Of a stretch of 64,000 nt of DNA, positions 2,160-40,746 are shown in pieces. Origin of the DNA: an uncultured Clostridia bacterium (GTDB lineage: Bacteria > Bacillota > Clostridia > TANB77 > CAG-508); assembly GCA_949746675.1 (NCBI GenBank), contig CATKDT010000049.1:1214-65213 (forward strand), given 5' to 3'. Below the pieces are notes generated by a model. It saw only the letters and a list, made by a program, of their open reading frames with translations. It did not search any database and had not been told where the DNA came from. Position numbers and translations under genes: made by a program. Within the stretch, counting starts at the first letter, position 1. The number at the start of each line of letters is the position of its first letter.

Positions 2160-2300
2160 TACAATATTTTAAAAGAGCTATGAAAACATAGCCCTTTTAT
2201 TATCAGTTATTTGGTAGGTGTCGCCTTTCCTACATCTCTTTTGACCTCTAGGGTGTGTGGTTGCAACATTTTACCACCTCAAATAACTCATTATATTGTA
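2160..2300 (-). promoter_or_regulatory. structured 5' leader (riboswitch/attenuator-like) upstream of DUF362 gene
   Basis: A local GC-rich island at 2205-2290 in AT-rich DNA. It contains a 9-bp closing helix (AGTTATTTG...CAAATAACT) that encloses internal hairpins. Downstream on the minus strand is the gggctatg-tttt-catagctc hairpin with a T-tract at 2165-2190. A sigma70-like promoter (cagaca-17-tataat) sits at ~2300-2330. Confidence 0.3.
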
Positions 2301-2810
2301 CTTATATTATATAACAATTATTCATTTTTGTCTGTTTTTTTCCATATAATGTCTCCATTTTTCTTATATGTTTTCAATCCGTTTTCGCCAATTGGTATAC
2401 ACGTTATTATGGAATTTTTATTACCTAAATTATCTCCCTCTACTGCTAATCTTATTACTAAGTTAACTGTTCCCCTTGTTTCACTTTTTTCTATAGTTTT
2501 TAATAATAACGCTGTATCGTCTCTAGTTTTATCTTTTAGAATATAATCAGGATATTCAATAATCTCTGTAAAATATTTTTCATATTTTTCTAATACTTCT
2601 GGATACCTCTTTATAATATGTTCCCTCTGTTTATCTGTTAATATGACTTCATGGTATATATATTATCTGAAATCTTTTTAAAATATTCTGTATTAATTTT
2701 TCCAATATATTGCAAAGTATGTACTCCTTTTAAGTGTCTATTCAAATGTTATTGGTATTATATACCATTTTCTCATATTTGTCAATATTTTATACCAAAT
2801 TTTGTAAACT

Positions 2811-3984
2811 TTATTTTATTAACCCCTTATAATATTTCCATGATAATATCTTAAAAGCCATTTTATCAATCACATTTATATCAATTCTTCCTTCATTTAT
2901 CGCATTTTTTACTTCATTTATGCTGTTCTCATAATCAGTTACAATGATTAAATCATTTCCAGCAAGTATTGCCTTTTCAGTAGCATTTGGCATTTTTGTT
3001 GCTTCCATTGCTAAATCATCGGTAATAATAATTCCTGTGAAGCCCAAAGTTTCTTGTAAAATTCTGTGAACTTCTTTAGATAATGTAGCTGGATTTTCAC
3101 TATCAATGCTGGTTACTATATTATGACTAACAAGCACTGCTTCCGCTCCTGCTTCAATTCCAACTTTAAATGGAATACAGTCATTGTTTATTATGCTCTC
3201 ATAACTTCTTAAATCAACTGAACTTGATTTATGTGTATCTTTATTATTTCCATATCCGTGGAAAATGCTTCAAGCAATATGATACTTTTGTTTCTTTACT
3301 TGTTTTTATTACATTTTCAGCATACTCTGACGTAATTTCCTTATTTTCACCTAAACTTCTTTTATACATATAATCATTAGTGCTTGTTGCAATATCAACT
3401 ACTGGTGCCAAATTCAAATTTAATCCTAACTCATATAATACTTTACTTTTTTCAATTATATCTTGTTTTATTAAATCAAGTCCACCTTCCTTATATAATA
3501 GTTGCGGTGCTTTAAATTTACCTGGTGTTAAATTACTATTACTACTTATTCTAACTACGCTTCCTCCCTCTTCGTCAACTGCTGTAATTAGAGGAATTTT
3601 TGATACATTTTGTACATTACTAATCATTGCAATAACTTGTTCTTTTGTCTTATCTTTGAAATCTTTTTCAAAAAATATATATCCCCCAAAATTATAATTA
3701 TGTATGTTTTCTATTGCATTTTCTTCATTATATCTTACTAAAAATATTTGTCCTATCTTTTCTTCTATTGTCAGTGTATTTAACGCATCATAAGCCATAT
3801 TATAGTATTTTGTAAATATTCCATTATCTCTCCACTCTTCTGGAATTTTGTCGTCAGTCCTTGGTATGACTTTTTCTATTTGCATATCTTTTTTAGAAAA
3901 ATTTTTTTCATTAGCACTATATATTAACATTCCACCTATAATTATTATAAATGCTATAATTAAAATAATAATCTTCTTTGCCAT
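2811..3984 (-). pseudogene. GH3 beta-N-acetylhexosaminidase (NagZ-like) lipoprotein, frame interrupted at 3255-3261
   Basis: Two ORFs, 3244..3984 (signal peptide, KHFP motif) and 2811..3137, together form one GH3 N-terminal domain. Deleting the G at 3258 (CCACGG->CCAGG in gene sense) gives KHFPGYG and a continuous frame. Confidence 0.7.
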
Positions 3985-6292: not shown

Positions 6293-6502
6293 TTATTCAT
6301 AATTTTCAAAATAATAATACATTTCTAATGCAAATTTACATAGTACTGAACAACATTCACTAACATCTTCATCTGTTATATTAAGACTTGAATCTAATAT
6401 AGTCCCATATCTCTTTATATTGCATTCTTTATTTTCTAATTCAGGATATTCTTGAAATAGTTGTCTTTTAGGATTGCCATGTTTTATGGAATTATTAATC
6501 AT
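6293..6502 (-). CDS. hypothetical small protein
   Basis: 69-aa ORF. Translationally coupled by an ATGA overlap to the upstream small ORF. Confidence 0.35.
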   Translation of the reverse strand: MINNSIKHGNPKRQLFQEYPELENKECNIKRYGTILDSSLNITDEDVSECCSVLCKFALEMYYYFENYE

Positions 6503-6885
6503 TCTATATTTGTTATATATATCATAATAGGTATTATCCTTCTACTATACTTATATTTTTCACATACACTTTCTATTTTTTCCTCTAATGATTTTTTATA
6601 GTCATTAGATGGATTTAATGATACTTTTAAGAACTGTTCTAAAGTGCTGTACATACCAGTAATTGCAGATAGTCTATTCATATACTCAGTGCTTTCTTTT
6701 GCAAAATCATACATTGCTTTATATTCCTGATTGTCGCTACTAAATTTATAAAATTGACAAAAGCTTTTTGATATATATTCTGCTGTTTCTTTTATTACGT
6801 TGCTATTATTATATGACTTACATATTAATAATTCAGTTATTAAGAAAAGTTCTAACTTTTCTTTTGTAAAGTCTAATTTTTTCAT
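6499..6885 (-). CDS. hypothetical small protein
   Basis: Start at MKKLDF with a GGAGAG SD 7 nt upstream. ~128 aa, helical. Confidence 0.4.
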   Translation of the reverse strand: MKKLDFTKEKLELFLITELLICKSYNNSNVIKETAEYISKSFCQFYKFSSDNQEYKAMYDFAKESTEYMNRLSAITGMYSTLEQFLKVSLNPSNDYKKSLEEKIESVCEKYKYSRRIIPIMIYITNIE

Positions 6886-7014
6886 ATTTTCTCTCCAATT
6901 ATTTTTTACATTATACAATCTATTTTTTCTATATATTTGAAAAGAAGTAACCATAATTGATTACTTCTCTTATCTATTACTATATTTGGATTTTAAAATC
7001 GTATTTAGTAATTA

Positions 7015-10000
7015 CTAGTCTCCATATGTTGCAAATCCTGAAAGATCAACTTTTGTATCACCTTTAACTGTTATTGTAACTTCTCCCTTAGCAATATTAG
7101 TAAATGTCATAGTAACATTTTCATTGTTAATTCCAAATGAGTCAATGAATTCTTGCATTAATTTTGTATCTGCTTCACTAAGTTCTTTACCTGATGAAAG
7201 TGTGATTTTTTCATCAACTGCATATTTTTGTAATACAACTGAATCATTATTAGCTACTTTAGTTGTTAATTTGTCTAACATATCTAATTTAGATTTTCCT
7301 AATTTTGCTGTTAATGTATTGTCATCAGCAGGATCCTCTTTTTCTGTTGTTGCAATTGTAACATTAACTTTTGCACCATCAGTAAATCCTGTGATATCAA
7401 CATTAGCATCCTTAACATCAATAGCTAAGTTAAGCTTTGTAACATCTAATGAACCATCATTAGGTGATGTTACTTTAACTTCTCCAGCTTCTGAGTTAAT
7501 TTTAACTGTTCCAGAAATTCTTGATGTTTGGTCATTTGAAGCAAAGTGTATTGTAGCTGGTTTAGTTACATCATATCTACCATTGTTGTTGTTTGTGAAT
7601 GTTAAGTCTGTATTGATATCTCCTTTTGGAGCGTTAACTGTTAATTCCTTATTATCATCAGCTGTAATTGACATATTAGTATTTGTTGTTTTAGCTGTTA
7701 TACCATTTATTGTAGCTGTAGAACCCTTTACTAATGTATATGTATTTTCTCCTGTAACTTCAGCACCATTATTTAAGTAAACTTCTGTATCTGCATCATT
7801 ATTAGTTAATGCTAATATTAATCCATTTCCTCCAACAGAAAGTTTTGATAATTTTGCTCCGCTTTCTACTTCTACAGTTCTGTCACTAGCAATTCCATTT
7901 CCAATAACTTCAACTTCTTTTCCTTCAAATTTAGTTGCTGGTATTGTTACAGTGTCACCACTTGCACTCTTATCTTCTGTTAATGCAAGAGTTATTTTTG
8001 TATCGTTTACTGTTATTTTATCATTTTCAACTAATGTTGAAGCAAATGTTAAAATATCATTAAATTCTGGTGCATAATTGTTGCTTCCTATTGTAATAGG
8101 ATTTTCAATATCTCCATTTATAACTACTTTACCATCTACATTTACAAATAATGTGTTTGCAACTGCTTTTGCTTTATCAGCTTCAACATCTAAATCACCT
8201 TTTACAACTTTTAATCCATTAATTGCTGGTGCTGTTGCATATGTGCTTGGTGCTGTTGCATAGCTTCCTGTAACATATCCAACTAAGCCTGATTCTCCAG
8301 TTACATTTCCAACTGTTGCTATTATTTTAACAACATATCTTTGGTCTTGTGCTAAACCTTCAATTGTTAAATATTTCTTTGTAGCATCATCTTTATCTAC
8401 TGTAACTACAGCATTTTTTGTTTCCTTGTTATTTTCTAATGTATAATCTTGGTTATTTGCATCTTTTAGAACTTTGTTTACTTCTGCTTTATATGTAGCA
8501 TCTGTTCCATTAACTGCTATAGGGTTAGCTAAAACATATGTTAATGATTTATCTGTTCTTGAATCTAAAGCTCCAAGTAATGTAGTTGCATCAATGTAGA
8601 AGAATGGTGTTGAAGTTGCTGGTTTTGTATTTTCAACATATTCTAATTGATTTGCATTTTTGTTTACAACGATTGTTGCTCTATATATTGTATTTGCTGC
8701 TAATCCTGTTATTGTGGCAGTATGTTTTTCAACATCTACTGTAGCAGTAACTGTATTATCTGCTTGATATTCATTGTTAGAATCTAATTTTTCAAATGTA
8801 ACAGTATATGGTGTAGTTGCATCTACATTTTCTTTTTTATTTGAATCAGCAAATGTAATTACCTTGTCTCCATCTTTTGTAACATTGAATTCTACAGCTG
8901 TTACAACATTTAATTCTTTAACTTCTACAACATCAGATACTACTTCTGCTGAATTAGTTGTATCTATTGCATCTCCTGTAACAGTTATACCAACTTTATA
9001 TTTTCCAGCTTTAGCCATATTACTTGTAAAGTCAACTTTATTTGCATTGCTAATAGGTTTTACTGCAACTATTTTTCCGTTTCCATCATATAGAACAGCT
9101 TCTCCTGTTACTGATTTAGCATTTTCATCTTTATCTAAAATTGTAAATTCTGCTACTGTTACTTCTTTTAATACTGGTGCTTTTACTTTAACTACTGCTT
9201 CTTCAGTTGTTGCTCCATATTTTGGTATTCCTACATTAGGTATTGTAGCTTTATTACCAAATTCATCTGTTAAAACTAGGCTCATAGTTTTGTTTCCATC
9301 TGGTAATACATAGTCAAGTGCTTTGTTTGCTAATTTGTTGCTTACATTCTCAAAAGATTTTGTTACTCCATCAATAGTATATTCAACCTTAACTATTTTT
9401 CCTTCTCCATATCCTTCTAAAGATAATGCTGCTGTTGTAGCACTTTGACGTGTTACATTTATTTTTGCAGCTGCTGGAGTAAGAATTTTTACATTTATAT
9501 TAGTTCTTGCTAATATAACCTTCTTTGTTTTTGTAGCATCTACTAGTTCTAATGTATATGTTCCGTTTTTTGTTCCATCTGTAGCAATTCCTAAATCTGA
9601 ACTTAAATCTTTACCTGTTATTTCAGCTTTGTTTGAGTTTGCAGCAAGGCTACCTATTGATACACCTTTTACTACTTCTGCACCATTTGCATCATATACA
9701 TTTAATTCTAATGTCTTTGTTTCATTAGATATTTTAGAATTATCAACATCTACAACAAGTTTTAAATTATCAGCATCTACTGAATTATCAAAGTTTTGAT
9801 TATTAACAACATTGTTTGCACCAACTGTTAGTGTATATCCACCTTCAACTGGTTGAACATTTGTTGGTTTTCTATCTCTTGATGTTGTAACGTTTCCTAC
9901 ATAGAAACCTTTTGTTCTATAAGCATCATCTGAATCTACTACATTTTGTATTGTATCTTCAACATTTGCTGCTTCTAAGTATACTCCACTTAATGTTTTA

Positions 10001-10392
10001 TTTCCTACATAGTGGCTAAGCATATCAAATGCATCATCTGAATCTACTAAACCATCTCCATTTGTATCTCCATAAACTATTACAGTATATGTTGTACTTC
10101 CAGATTTGAATGTATCTCCTGTTCCAACTATTGTATCTTCTGATGCAACAGTATTTCCATTAAAAGCTGTAATGTTAAATTCATTTTTTAAATCTTTTAT
10201 TGTTACGTTGTCTCCCACATTTAATATATATGGTACTACATTTTCAACTCCACCTAAAGTTGCATATTTTCCTAAACTTCTTGTTGATGGGTCAACTTCA
10301 GCTGCAGAAACTTTAGATAAACCAGCTAAACCAGTTGTTGCTAATATACCTGCTAATGCTAAAGATGAAACTACTTTTAAATTTTTATTCAC
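7015..10392 (-). CDS. giant (1125 aa) secreted surface protein with N-terminal dockerin-like Ca-binding module and long Thr/Val-rich beta-repeat region
   Basis: Signal peptide present. Residues ~107-170 (nt ~9885-10075) read GDTNGDGLVDSDDAFDMLSHYVG...NVVDSDDAY, matching the dockerin DxNxDGxxD repeat. There is no C-terminal LPXTG and no SLH domain. Confidence 0.85.
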   Translation of the reverse strand: MNKNLKVVSSLALAGILATTGLAGLSKVSAAEVDPSTRSLGKYATLGGVENVVPYILNVGDNVTIKDLKNEFNITAFNGNTVASEDTIVGTGDTFKSGSTTYTVIVYGDTNGDGLVDSDDAFDMLSHYVGNKTLSGVYLEAANVEDTIQNVVDSDDAYRTKGFYVGNVTTSRDRKPTNVQPVEGGYTLTVGANNVVNNQNFDNSVDADNLKLVVDVDNSKISNETKTLELNVYDANGAEVVKGVSIGSLAANSNKAEITGKDLSSDLGIATDGTKNGTYTLELVDATKTKKVILARTNINVKILTPAAAKINVTRQSATTAALSLEGYGEGKIVKVEYTIDGVTKSFENVSNKLANKALDYVLPDGNKTMSLVLTDEFGNKATIPNVGIPKYGATTEEAVVKVKAPVLKEVTVAEFTILDKDENAKSVTGEAVLYDGNGKIVAVKPISNANKVDFTSNMAKAGKYKVGITVTGDAIDTTNSAEVVSDVVEVKELNVVTAVEFNVTKDGDKVITFADSNKKENVDATTPYTVTFEKLDSNNEYQADNTVTATVDVEKHTATITGLAANTIYRATIVVNKNANQLEYVENTKPATSTPFFYIDATTLLGALDSRTDKSLTYVLANPIAVNGTDATYKAEVNKVLKDANNQDYTLENNKETKNAVVTVDKDDATKKYLTIEGLAQDQRYVVKIIATVGNVTGESGLVGYVTGSYATAPSTYATAPAINGLKVVKGDLDVEADKAKAVANTLFVNVDGKVVINGDIENPITIGSNNYAPEFNDILTFASTLVENDKITVNDTKITLALTEDKSASGDTVTIPATKFEGKEVEVIGNGIASDRTVEVESGAKLSKLSVGGNGLILALTNNDADTEVYLNNGAEVTGENTYTLVKGSTATINGITAKTTNTNMSITADDNKELTVNAPKGDINTDLTFTNNNNGRYDVTKPATIHFASNDQTSRISGTVKINSEAGEVKVTSPNDGSLDVTKLNLAIDVKDANVDITGFTDGAKVNVTIATTEKEDPADDNTLTAKLGKSKLDMLDKLTTKVANNDSVVLQKYAVDEKITLSSGKELSEADTKLMQEFIDSFGINNENVTMTFTNIAKGEVTITVKGDTKVDLSGFATYGD

Positions 10393-10547
10393 TTTGAATT
10401 CCTCCTAAAAATATTATTTAATTTAATATATTTTATTATAATATATTTAATTTAATGAACATTATTTTGTGTATATAGACTATTACTTATTACTTTTGTA
10501 ATAGTCTATACTTATTATAAATTACATAAAAGTAATATATTTTTAAA

Positions 10548-11195
10548 TTATTTGTTTTTTCTTATTGCTAAAACTGCTCCTGCTACTATTACTACTAAAG
10601 CTATTCCTGCAACATATGCATATACTGGTGCACCTGTTTGTGGATATTTAACTTTTCCATCATCTGATGGTTTTGTTGTTCCTGTTGGAGCTGGTGTTTG
10701 TGTTCCTGTTGGAGCTGGTGTATCTGTTACGTCTGGAACTTCTGGTGTTGGTGTTGGTTCTGCTGCTTCAACTACTATTGTTGTTTTAACTGCTGGTAGT
10801 GTTTCTGCTGTTCCATTTGCTTTGAATTCAGTAACTTCAAAATTAGCTTCTTTATTTTCTGTTATATCAGCTTTTGCTTTGAATGTCATTTCAATTTTTC
10901 CTGTATTTACTGTTTGTGAAGTACTAGCAGCTGCTAAACTTAACACACCATTTCTATTTCCTACTTCTGGAGCTAAATCTCCTGATTTTGTTGTTACATA
11001 TTCTAATAAATCTGTATTGTATGCTAATTTTAAGTTGTATCTACTTGTATCTGTTGGTACAGATATTGTAACTGTTACATTTTCTCCTGCTTTTACTTCT
11101 GTTGGTACGCTCATTTCTGCTGCGTTAACATTTGTTCCTAATATAGCAACTAACATTGCTACTATTGTCATAATTCCTATAATTGTTTTTTTCAT
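10548..11195 (-). CDS. sortase-anchored cohesin-like scaffold protein
   Basis: Signal peptide, then a ~130-aa beta-rich domain with a cohesin-like strand pattern. A Pro/Thr linker follows. The C-terminal sorting signal is YPQTG + hydrophobic TM + RKNK. Confidence 0.7.
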   Translation of the reverse strand: MKKTIIGIMTIVAMLVAILGTNVNAAEMSVPTEVKAGENVTVTISVPTDTSRYNLKLAYNTDLLEYVTTKSGDLAPEVGNRNGVLSLAAASTSQTVNTGKIEMTFKAKADITENKEANFEVTEFKANGTAETLPAVKTTIVVEAAEPTPTPEVPDVTDTPAPTGTQTPAPTGTTKPSDDGKVKYPQTGAPVYAYVAGIALVVIVAGAVLAIRKNK

Positions 11196-11254
11196 TTTAA
11201 AATCCTCCTAAATTTTTGATTTTTTTCTTTTTTGTTTTTTGAGGTCCTCGTTTG

Positions 11255-11944
11255 CTATACCTCTCGAGCCTTGAATATACGTCTAGTTAATCCTCCTGGA
11301 TTGCAAGTTACCAAAGTTACTTCTCTCCTACCATTTGTATTTTGGTTAATACCTCTATCGGTATCGTCTGGCATTGACGTGAATATATCATAAATCTTGT
11401 ATGTAACACTTGAACCATCTGCTTTGTTGATTACATAAAATGTATCTCCAATACTTAGTTCTTTCAAGCGTCCAAACTGTGTGCTTATGTTATGTCCCGT
11501 TACTACCATATTCCCTGGCTTGTTTACTTTTGCACCATAGAAATGTGTTACTGAGAGTTTTAGTGCTTTATTAGTAGTTTGATTTAATATGGATTTTTTT
11601 ACACCAATCTTATCAATTACTATTTGCCCTATAACCTGATATCCTCCAATCTGGTCTGGGAAATCGTCTTGCGCTGGGCTTTTAGCTTCTTCCTCTGGAA
11701 CATCGTTTTCTTCCAGCATTTCAATTTCTTCATCTTCATCATCTATGATATTATTGGCTTCATTAACTATGTTCGTTTCGTTTTCGGCTTTATTTCCCAA
11801 GTGTTTATCTTTTATTACAGTGGCATATACTATTACACCCGTAATTAATAAGATTACTACTAATATTAAAGCTATTTTCTTTTTACTATTTTTTTTGCCT
11901 TCACGTTCTTTGGTATGCTTGCCTTTTGAAAAAGCTGTTCCCAC
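11255..11944 (-). CDS. sortase (class B/D-like)
   Basis: N-terminal TM anchor and acidic linker. Catalytic motifs VTGHN and TLVTC and a conserved Arg. Confidence 0.85.
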   Translation of the reverse strand: MGTAFSKGKHTKEREGKKNSKKKIALILVVILLITGVIVYATVIKDKHLGNKAENETNIVNEANNIIDDEDEEIEMLEENDVPEEEAKSPAQDDFPDQIGGYQVIGQIVIDKIGVKKSILNQTTNKALKLSVTHFYGAKVNKPGNMVVTGHNISTQFGRLKELSIGDTFYVINKADGSSVTYKIYDIFTSMPDDTDRGINQNTNGRREVTLVTCNPGGLTRRIFKAREV

Positions 11945-12043
11945 TTTGGCTTACACAATACACCTCCCTTCTTTTCTTTCGTTTGTCTGCTGATATTTTA
12001 TTCTATTGTATTATAAAAGTCAATACTTTTTCTTAATTTTTTT

Positions 12044-12179: not shown

Positions 12180-12209
12180 TAAAAAATAGTACCAATTTAA
12201 ATTGATACT
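12180..12209 (-). terminator. terminator of EPS operon
   Basis: agtaccaattt/aaattgatact hairpin followed by a T-run on the minus strand. Confidence 0.4.
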
Positions 12210-12217
12210 ATCTATAT

Positions 12218-40663: not shown

Positions 40664-40746
40664 TGGTACCGATAGTGGGACTCGAACCCACATGGTTTCC
40701 CGCTGGATTTTGAATCCAGTGCGTCTACCAATTCCGCCATATCGGC
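40664..40746 (-). tRNA. tRNA-Leu (anticodon CAA), type II with long variable arm, CCA encoded
   Basis: Cloverleaf derived by hand: GCCGATA acceptor stem, anticodon loop TTCAAAA, GGTTCGAGTCC T-arm. Confidence 0.85.

Follow-up and report, generated by a model that had tools for sequence, protein, structure and literature searches.

A putative cohesin–dockerin cassette with its own sortase for display of a giant surface protein in uncultured gut Clostridia

A three-gene module on the minus strand of a 64-kb stretch of chromosomal DNA (the window, ~27% G+C) from an uncultured mouse-gut Clostridia bacterium encodes a sortase, a small cohesin-bearing anchor protein and a giant secreted protein with an N-terminal dockerin, and is probably a self-contained, non-cellulosomal cohesin–dockerin surface-display cassette. 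Predicted folds, conserved gene order, co-variation of the cohesin with the dockerin-bearing end of the giant, symmetry of the dockerin repeats and a natural fusion all support this interpretation, which agrees with an earlier reading of the sequence alone (the sequence-only reading) that had proposed a sortase-anchored cohesin holding a dockerin cargo non-covalently. Research on cohesin–dockerin pairs has dealt almost exclusively with their role as the glue that holds cellulosomes and amylosomes together. The module suggests that the same glue makes a general, self-contained device for displaying a large non-enzymatic protein.

Results

The module spans positions 7015-11944 of the window, and the limits of its three open reading frames (ORFs) and their common direction are exactly those given in the sequence-only reading:

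11944..11255, minus strand: sortase gene, 229 amino acids (aa), GTG start
11195..10548, minus strand: anchor protein gene, 215 aa
10392..7015, minus strand: giant gene, 1125 aa, GTG start, with the ribosome-binding site TAGGAGG ahead of it

All three products carry export or membrane signals in their sequences. Across its 64 kb, the window has a single cohesin, a single dockerin and a single sorting signal, and neither a glycoside hydrolase (GH) nor a carbohydrate-binding module (CBM) was found in the three-gene module.

The anchor protein is made up of four parts:

11118..11195, minus strand: signal peptide (residues 1-26), predicted cleavage VNA/AE, nearly invariant across alleles (alignment A1)
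10773..11117, minus strand: cohesin domain, the proposed dockerin receptor (residues 27-141), strain-variable
10650..10772, minus strand: Pro/Thr/Glu-rich linker (residues 142-182), predicted to be disordered
10551..10649, minus strand: cell-wall sorting signal with YPQTG (10632-10646; residues 184-188), a 23-residue hydrophobic helix and an RKNK tail

The cohesin-like domain and the sorting signal (YPQTG, transmembrane helix, RKNK) had both been called in the sequence-only reading, and both were found. Residues 32-145 match Pfam Cohesin (PF00963) with 28.9 bits against a gathering score of 24.1, and 8 of 12 family members pass this model individually. In the AlphaFold model of the anchor protein, residues 27-141 form an all-beta domain at a per-residue confidence (pLDDT) of ~90, the linker drops below 50 over residues 154-200 and the C-terminus is a helix. 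When this model was searched with Foldseek, the top seven matches were all cohesins, the best being that of Clostridium perfringens GH84C (2jh2; E=2.7e-8, TM-score 0.66), followed by Ruminococcus flavefaciens ScaC, ScaB and ScaE and a non-cellulosomal cohesin of Archaeoglobus. In agreement with this, the cohesin profile A1 matched cohesins in the PDB at E=4e-5, with 2w1n at E=6.5e-5. The sorting signal scores just below the standard models (Pfam Gram_pos_anchor, 17.8 against 20; TIGR01167, 13.7 against 15.9) because the first position of its motif is not Leu; the family consensus is xPQTGAP...RKNK, and the first position is free across the family (Y, F, H, L, N or Q). The Pro/Thr-rich linker would act as a wall-spanning spacer.

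The giant protein is laid out as follows:

10303..10392, minus strand: GTG start and signal peptide (residues 1-30), VSA/AE
10075..10281, minus strand: N-terminal alpha/beta domain (N-domain; residues 38-106), AlphaFold pLDDT ~80, always preceding the dockerin
9898..10074, minus strand: dockerin (residues 107-165)
Residues 109-120, minus strand: dockerin repeat 1, DTNGDGLVDSDD plus helix, with a canonical Ca loop
Within the dockerin, minus strand: dockerin repeat 2, EDTIQNVVDSDD plus helix, with an atypically long loop
8248..9852, minus strand: stalk of about five tandem beta-sandwiches, fibronectin type III (FN3)/Ig-like (residues 181-715)
7018..8247, minus strand: C-terminal region (residues 716-1125), pLDDT 80-93

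That the giant is secreted and has no anchor of its own, as the sequence-only reading held, was borne out by the signal peptide and by Pfam and NCBIfam scans, in which no SLH, CWB/CWB2, LysM, LPXTG or other wall anchor was found on it. Because the giant lacks any other anchor and the window holds a single cohesin, dockerin and sorting signal, the cohesin of the anchor protein is the only visible route by which the giant could reach the surface. The model of the whole giant has a mean pLDDT of 82. Its body gave sub-threshold fn3 and CBM-like matches only in Pfam and NCBIfam, fold searches returned generic FN3/Ig arrays, and no catalytic domain was found in the cargo, which is FN3/Ig-like by fold search. 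The C-terminal region combines a linker module, a solenoid-like series of short beta-strands (residues 791-1030) and an alpha/beta domain at its end. If the dockerin lies next to the cell, this region would form the far tip. In LPXTG fibrillar adhesins the C-terminus is the anchored end, and the topology proposed here for the giant is the reverse.

The N-domain matched no Pfam family and sits, relative to the dockerin, at the position of an X-module. Together with the dockerin it is the best-conserved part of the family (conservation 0.46 versus 0.17-0.30 for the body), and among distant relatives the first beta-sandwich and the C-terminal domain are the most variable parts of the cargo. The signal peptide, N-domain and dockerin (profile positions 1 to ~180-300) also occur on bodies of 1100-1900 aa that do not match that of the giant. 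Here and below, relatives of the window are labelled with L-numbers for loci and P-numbers for protein library entries; the proteins with other bodies are P0199, P0204, P0208, P0213-P0216, P0220, P0223, P0225, P0231, P0234, P0248 and P0256. The N-domain and dockerin thus appear, from their distribution, to be a portable attachment module that has been shuffled onto other cargos.

The identity of the dockerin was settled by its relatives. Searched alone against the PDB, the window segment has dockerins as its best matches at E=0.09-0.2 only, and a Pfam scan of the full-length giant gave no Dockerin_1 match. A profile of the aligned N-termini of 11 orthologues (A2), by contrast with the single segment, matched the dockerin-bearing structure 8x3a at E=1.9e-15, Ruminococcus bromii Amy16 at 7.5e-10, the ScaB dockerin at 1.6e-9 and the Xyn10B and CelS dockerins at ~3e-9. 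Of its 39 PDB matches, the first 33 are chains that carry a dockerin; the others, all at E>0.03, are EF-hand or unrelated proteins. Individually, 10 of the 11 orthologous N-termini match Pfam Dockerin_1 (best E 5.4e-10), the window copy being the sole exception. Because the orthologue profile matches solved dockerins and 10 of the 11 orthologues pass the Pfam model, the window segment can be placed by sequence as a diverged member of the dockerin family.

The two dockerin repeats of each protein resemble each other in a manner that points to a binding partner. Their helices are 64% identical within a protein versus 28% between lineages (permutation p<5e-5), and the recognition positions 10/11 agree between the repeats in each protein (SD/SD, TF/TF, VN/VN, SS/SS, ST/ST), being Ser-Asp in both repeats of the window dockerin. 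Matching repeats are a signature of functional dual-binding dockerins (PMC7456326). Such concerted evolution of the helices, as read from the alignments, would be hard to explain if the dockerin had no binding partner.

Relatives of the module come from uncultured gut Clostridia, from mouse and rabbit metagenome-assembled genomes (MAGs) and from unlabelled metagenome assemblies. A word-indexed search of 5.8 billion proteins gave 11 clusters of anchor homologues, and the same kind of search gave 48 homologues of the giant, all of 1030-1146 aa and all without a name; an exhaustive profile search gave 181 cluster representatives at E<1e-30, and over 60 match along their full length. Scanning metagenomes with the cohesin profile A1 gave no matches, and scanning them with profile A2 gave 80 loci. 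Of these, L035-L039 and L041 belong to the family and L043-L045 carry fusions; the other ~70, common proteins of human-gut bacteria with a C-terminal dockerin, were set aside. None of the sources names the family proteins, and no published description of the family was found in the literature searched. The order sortase, cohesin anchor, N-terminal-dockerin giant recurs in ~20 distinct modules with no exception where the context could be read, and the ribosome-binding site ahead of the giant gene is kept in all modules. The neighbourhoods of the modules fall into at least six unrelated kinds, namely a capsule locus (window, L007, L010, L032), CbiQ (L013, L020), DnaJ (L019), TGT and fatty-acid synthesis (L027), UvrD (L029), and an ABC transporter with S-adenosylmethionine synthetase (L033); L022-L026 and L035-L041, in other surroundings, have the same gene order.

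Comparison with L007, a strain of the same species, delimits what varies. The two share every base of the sortase gene and of the stretch encoding the anchor signal peptide (100% identity, to ~11120); identity then drops to ~50% at the first residues of the mature cohesin, recovers to ~80% over the sorting signal, stays at or below 50% through the whole giant gene and is 98% again from 6908 on. Because identity with L007 collapses exactly there, the variable cassette is, as far as sequence can delimit it, the cohesin domain together with the cargo.

Within this cassette the cohesin follows the attachment end of the giant. Across 16 modules, cohesin identity correlates with identity of the N-domain plus dockerin (Mantel r=0.65, p=1e-4) and weakly with identity of the cargo body (r=0.24, p=0.02), and in a joint regression the coefficients are 0.50 for the N-domain plus dockerin and 0.04 for the body; the co-variation was also computed in a 12-module version. 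Mosaic modules tell the same story from both sides. L032 has a body only 33% identical to that of the window and is 86% identical in the dockerin, 83% in the N-domain and 71% in the cohesin; the similarity of its cohesin had been predicted from the dockerin of P0023 before the neighbouring gene was looked up, and the prediction was borne out. Conversely, L031 is 70% identical to the window in the body, 27% in the dockerin and 34% in the cohesin, and L033 is 59%, 34% and 30% identical, respectively.

In three independent assemblies (L043-L045), cohesin, N-domain and dockerin are fused in one ORF after the sortase gene. In L044 (L044:1499-4165), the fused product has a signal peptide and a cohesin, then a degenerate sorting motif (HDPTGE) that lacks a membrane helix, then the N-domain and a dockerin whose second repeat is degenerate, and finally a body that ends in a long Pro/Thr/Ser tail. 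On the evidence of these reading frames, L043-L045 represent a Rosetta-stone fusion of the two module proteins.

The sortase has the following features:

Membrane helix (residues 24-44), acidic linker and catalytic domain (residues 108-227), minus strand; Pfam and motif mapping
Catalytic residues His150, TLVTC (residues 210-214, coordinates 11303-11317) and Arg221/222, minus strand

It matches Pfam PF04203 with 69.3 bits against a cut-off of 26.6 and also passes TIGR01076 (45.3 against 39.35), and with the catalytic His, Cys and Arg in place the call of a TLVTC sortase is confirmed. None of the class-specific NCBIfam cut-offs was reached: class C is best (64.5 against 160), followed by SrtD of the LPxTATN type (53.7 against 140), class D (44.4 against 165), class E (42.6 against 160) and class F (21.1 against 166). 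The nearest solved structures are likewise class C enzymes (2xwg, E=1.9e-11, and 4d7w), at modest E-values. The link to class D sortases that the sequence-only reading drew from the PQTG core is weak by these scores, and the analogy with C. perfringens SrtD extends to the letters PQTG only.

The window sortase gene is intact. In four or five diverged lineages of related modules, however, the sortase gene is split by a +1 frameshift at an identical site (L013:1369-2080, L020:1271-1978, L023:7293-8000, L022:7279-8000, L029:4539-5269 and L030). The site reads AAA AAA C/GG AGA, or AAA AAG C/GG in L022, and the sortase of L031 is the in-frame version at that site (AAA AAC GGA GAT). Past the frameshift, the frame is open to the usual end, and the catalytic half (GDTFY...ITIVTC...R...KAREI) is kept, with amino-acid divergence and no stops. 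The frameshifted state recurs in independent assemblies; programmed +1 frameshifting, transcriptional slippage or a phase switch that controls display may lie behind it.

Four RNA and transcription features were mapped in and around the module:

11995..12023, minus strand: promoter-like site TTGACT-17-TAAAAT from a consensus scan (10/12 matches; a consensus match only)
~12184-12213: U-tailed hairpin closing the capsule operon, -12 kcal/mol, z=-4.8
10473..10511, minus strand: hairpin in the 155-nucleotide (nt) spacer between anchor and giant genes, 14-bp stem, -16.1 kcal/mol, z=-6.5
6940..6971, minus strand: AT-rich 14-bp hairpin plus UUUU, 44 nt past the giant stop, overlapping the ATG of the next ORF

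The hairpin between the scaffold and cargo genes had been predicted correctly and is unusually stable given its composition; the tuning of stoichiometry that the sequence-only reading suggested for it is among the weaker claims. No U-tract follows it. L007 and L010, which have different cassettes, carry hairpins of unrelated sequence at the equivalent position of the spacer, and no spacer hairpin was found in distant modules with spacers of 40-47 nt. Because the hairpins of L007 and L010 share the place of the window hairpin and not its sequence, they suggest selection for structure in the anchor–giant spacer, and a role of the spacer hairpin in differential stability or partial termination is plausible. 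The module had also been said to end at a terminator, and here the outcome was negative: a scan of the minus strand gave no terminator-like site after the giant gene, and although the 75-nt spacer folds at -18.6 kcal/mol (z=-5.1), the hairpin at 6940-6971 within this fold would be a weak terminator at best.

In the MAG 'uncultured Clostridia bacterium MGBC129337', one contig matches the locus DNA at 99% identity, and many other ENA and Logan metagenome runs also yielded assemblies of this locus. Upstream of the sortase gene, the window holds a capsule/exopolysaccharide locus (CpsB phosphatase, tyrosine kinase, Wzz, a Bac_transf initiating transferase, flippase, pyruvyl transferase and GT2 glycosyltransferases), with a gap of 273 bp, in which the promoter-like site lies, between cpsB and the sortase gene. 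The capsule locus that the sequence-only reading placed beside the module is therefore real in the window, but the adjacency is not conserved across the family, and since most relatives sit elsewhere, the capsule locus is not taken to be functionally tied to the module in the family at large. At the position where the window has cpsB, several related modules carry a divergent gene for a small HTH_3 (XRE-type) regulator just upstream of the sortase gene (L020:842-1060, L027:4101-4337, L029:4007-4228, L031:4153-4377).

Just downstream of the giant gene, ORFs of 151 and 69 aa (6293-6954, minus strand) are a split gene for a 220-aa cytoplasmic protein, which is intact in L004, measures 196 aa in L007 and has no Pfam match. 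The edge of the variable cassette (~6908) falls within the 5' end of this gene; the two ORFs were rejected as members of the module since they lie mostly outside the cassette. L007 (14255-14728) and L013 (6100-6582) have a fourth gene after the giant gene, encoding proteins of 157-160 aa with an N-terminal membrane helix that are 33% identical to each other (E=1e-21); the window has no such gene. One assembly from the same species, L003 (10295-13673), splits the giant into two ORFs of 297 and 756 aa separated by a gap; a disrupted allele or an assembly problem could account for this. Further along, the window encodes ClpX, trigger factor, an aminoacyl-tRNA synthetase and glycogen genes. A GH family 3 gene at ~2800-3984 (minus strand; L001:17210-18383) consists of two short adjoining ORFs (246 and 108 aa) and looks fragmented; a skipping-rope RNA (Rfam RF02924, a small-RNA motif) lies at 2206-2287 (minus strand; 66.5 bits against a gathering score of 36.7), and a single tRNA gene at 40667-40746 (minus strand; Rfam, 61.7 bits).

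Discussion

Altogether, our results favor a model in which the three products form one display device. In this model, the membrane-bound sortase would cleave the anchor protein at YPQT/G and link it covalently to peptidoglycan, and the Pro/Thr linker would hold the single cohesin above the wall. The X-like N-domain and the dockerin of the giant would bind this cohesin, with Ca2+ presumably taking part, in repeat 1 at any rate, and the cargo would project outward with its predicted FN3/Ig-like stalk and a C-terminal head rich in beta-strands. We infer the anchoring of the cohesin protein by the sortase because of the tripartite sorting signal and the invariant pairing with the sortase gene, and the binding of the giant to the cohesin because of fold, synteny, co-variation and the natural fusion. 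Between strains of one species, the cohesin domain and the whole cargo gene would be replaced jointly, the sortase, signal peptide and sorting signal remaining constant; such joint replacement would let a cell swap its exposed surface protein while lock and key stay matched. Pressure from the immune system, phages or competitors is our inferred reason for the replacement.

Several observations weigh against this interpretation. The sequence-only reading had called the dockerin canonical, which holds for repeat 1 only; it does not hold for repeat 2, whose loop (NVEDTIQNVVDSDD) is two residues longer than canonical and lacks the D-x-D/N-x-DG pattern, nor for the excised window segment, which stays below Pfam Dockerin_1 (PF00404; 12.8 bits against 22.9, E=0.14). 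Thus, of the three Pfam families that the sequence-only reading led us to expect, Cohesin and Sortase were matched and Dockerin_1 was not by the window copy alone; structure prediction likewise gave the cohesin fold with high confidence and the dockerin as three helices with a pLDDT of 50-74, falling below 50 at residues 145-152. The ~400 C-terminal residues of the giant have no match in Pfam, NCBIfam or the PDB (profile A5, 410 residues). Part of the co-variation could stem from plain linkage, as the giant gene has its 5' end right beside the cohesin gene. Finally, our view of the genome spans 64 kb, and other cohesins or dockerins could exist elsewhere in it.

This last point would suit an arrangement in which the two proteins are neighbors and not partners, such that the cohesin docks other dockerin proteins or the dockerin of the giant binds another cohesin, and adjacency reflects shared regulation or a shared sortase. 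The occurrence of the N-domain and dockerin on other bodies fits this arrangement, as does the precedent of R. bromii Sca2, which binds the dockerins of several unrelated proteins (PMC4611034). We nevertheless regard it as improbable, given that the adjacency is invariant in ~20 modules in unrelated contexts, that the type of the cohesin follows the dockerin type of its neighbor despite swapped cargo bodies, that a cohesin–dockerin fusion exists and that the window has one of each. Harder still to credit is the idea that no cohesin–dockerin binding takes place at all and that the dockerin-like segment is an EF-hand-type Ca-binding stabilizer beside an unrelated small wall protein with a cohesin-like fold. 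The sub-threshold score of the window dockerin and its degenerate second loop would be at home there, and many non-cellulosomal cohesin-like and dockerin-like modules have, to our knowledge, no demonstrated partner; but the profile built from the family finds bona fide dockerins at E=2e-15, and both the concerted evolution of the helices at known recognition positions and the co-variation of the N-domain and dockerin with the cohesin speak for binding. A sortase-assembled pilus, in which a class C-like sortase polymerizes the small protein or attaches the giant covalently, was rejected and strikes us as exceedingly improbable: the best sortase matches are of class C in both NCBIfam (64.5 bits) and the PDB (2xwg, 4d7w), but the score lies far under the cut-off of 160, the giant has no sorting signal, and the 215-aa protein, the only substrate with such a signal, has a cohesin fold without a pilin fold or the YPKN pilin motif.

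A different question is what the cassette displays. The label 'adhesin' for the cargo is a guess, and a fibrillar adhesin and a coat or S-layer-like protein have both been proposed. That the same device displays an abundant S-layer-like or lattice coat, making the cassette a surface-serotype locus beside the capsule genes, seems to us unlikely, if worth serious thought. The giant has a composition typical of S-layer proteins (pI 4.6, no Cys, no Trp, and rich in Thr, Val, Asn, Ala and Lys), its gene follows a strong ribosome-binding site and a stable leader hairpin, and the whole gene is exchanged between strains beside a glycan locus, in a manner that we take to resemble the slpA cassette of Clostridioides difficile. 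Its Foldseek matches include the S-layer assembly domain of Bacillus anthracis Sap (6qx4, 9g93), but these rank 28th and 40th, under many generic FN3 arrays. Moreover, a coat would require sortase-anchored sockets equal in number to its subunits, and the adjacency to the capsule locus is not conserved across the family. By extension, it is tempting to speculate, with similar reserve, that the module is a third Gram-positive way to tether an outermost coat, beside SLH domains on secondary cell wall polymers (SLH-SCWP) and CWB2, namely by a private cohesin–dockerin pair on a sortase-fixed peg; lock and coat would then be exchanged as a 'surface serotype' cassette, and in sister lineages the supply of pegs might be switched by the recoded (+1 frameshift) sortase.

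If the display cassette works as we propose, its matched alleles would form a natural library of orthogonal cohesin–dockerin pairs (SD, TF, VN, SS, ST and VV types) of use in synthetic biology, and a tractable case of co-evolving binding specificity. The cassettes also point to a hypervariable major surface structure in gut lineages without cultured representatives, a likely target of phages, immunoglobulin A or competitors.

The closest known arrangement is that of ScaE in R. flavefaciens and Ruminococcus champanellensis, which consists of a signal peptide, a single cohesin, a linker and a C-terminal sortase signal and is fixed covalently to the wall (PMC4081043). ScaE holds CttA, a non-enzymatic dockerin adhesion protein encoded alongside it in the order scaC-scaA-scaB-cttA-scaE (PMC4081043, PMC7456326). 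The window module shares the layout of the anchor protein and an adjoining gene whose product bears a dockerin and is no enzyme; each system also places one small additional module immediately N-terminal to the dockerin, and the window cohesin model matches the ScaE structures 2zf9 and 4iu3 at E ~1e-4. Unlike the ScaE system, the window module has no multi-cohesin scaffoldin, GHs or CBMs; its dockerin is at the N-terminus of the cargo and not at the C-terminus; it has its own sortase gene and an xPQTG motif; its N-domain is an alpha/beta domain of ~70 residues, whereas the X-module of the ScaE system is Ig-like; its cohesin is structurally nearer to those of C. perfringens than to type III ScaE; and cohesin and cargo are exchanged jointly in its family as strain-specific cassettes.

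Sca2 of the gut Firmicute R. bromii joins a cohesin to a C-terminal sortase signal and serves for docking at the cell surface in a setting other than cellulose degradation (PMC4611034). Two dockerins of this species, Amy16 and Amy10, are among those that the window-family dockerin profile matches best in the PDB; Sca2, however, has 534 aa and binds several enzymes (amylases, peptidases), whereas cohesin and giant in the window seem to serve each other alone, one to one, with no enzyme involved. In structure, the window cohesin is nearest to those of C. perfringens GH84C/NagJ and GH33 (2jh2; also 2w1n, 2vo8 and 2o4e), which come from a low-GC Clostridium and, like the window family, are used outside cellulosomes. 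Reportedly, work on NagH and NagJ has shown that C. perfringens cohesin–dockerin modules join secreted enzymes to one another. Those modules, unlike that of the window, are internal domains of large enzymes and are not sortase-anchored.

A wall-bound cohesin that holds a large non-catalytic protein, as proposed here, is also found in Clostridium thermocellum, where SdbA, OlpB and Orf2p receive the X-dockerin of CipA, and chains of the CipA X-dockerin (2b59_B, 3kcp_A) match the window-family dockerin profile over the final N-domain strand and the dockerin. There, the cargo is an enzyme scaffoldin and the anchor uses SLH domains and not a sortase; this type II anchor is non-covalent (PMC5817068). 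The window module, by contrast, is neither a cellulosome nor an amylosome, as it lacks GHs, CBMs and a multi-cohesin scaffoldin (64 kb examined), nor is the giant an SLH- or CWB2-anchored S-layer protein, as it has no such Pfam matches. Its xPQTG motif resembles the (S/P)PXTG motifs, including SPQTG, of C. difficile SrtB (PMC4155245) and the LPQTGS motif of C. perfringens SrtD (PMC4498605) in the P-x-T-G core only. Thus the principle of a sortase-anchored single cohesin that holds an X-dockerin protein is already established, by ScaE with CttA and ScaB and by R. bromii Sca2 (PMC4081043, PMC4611034, PMC7456326, PMC11557425), and what is new here is the combination of a dedicated sortase, an N-terminal dockerin, a module free of enzymes and CBMs, an xPQTG motif and matched cassettes that vary between strains.

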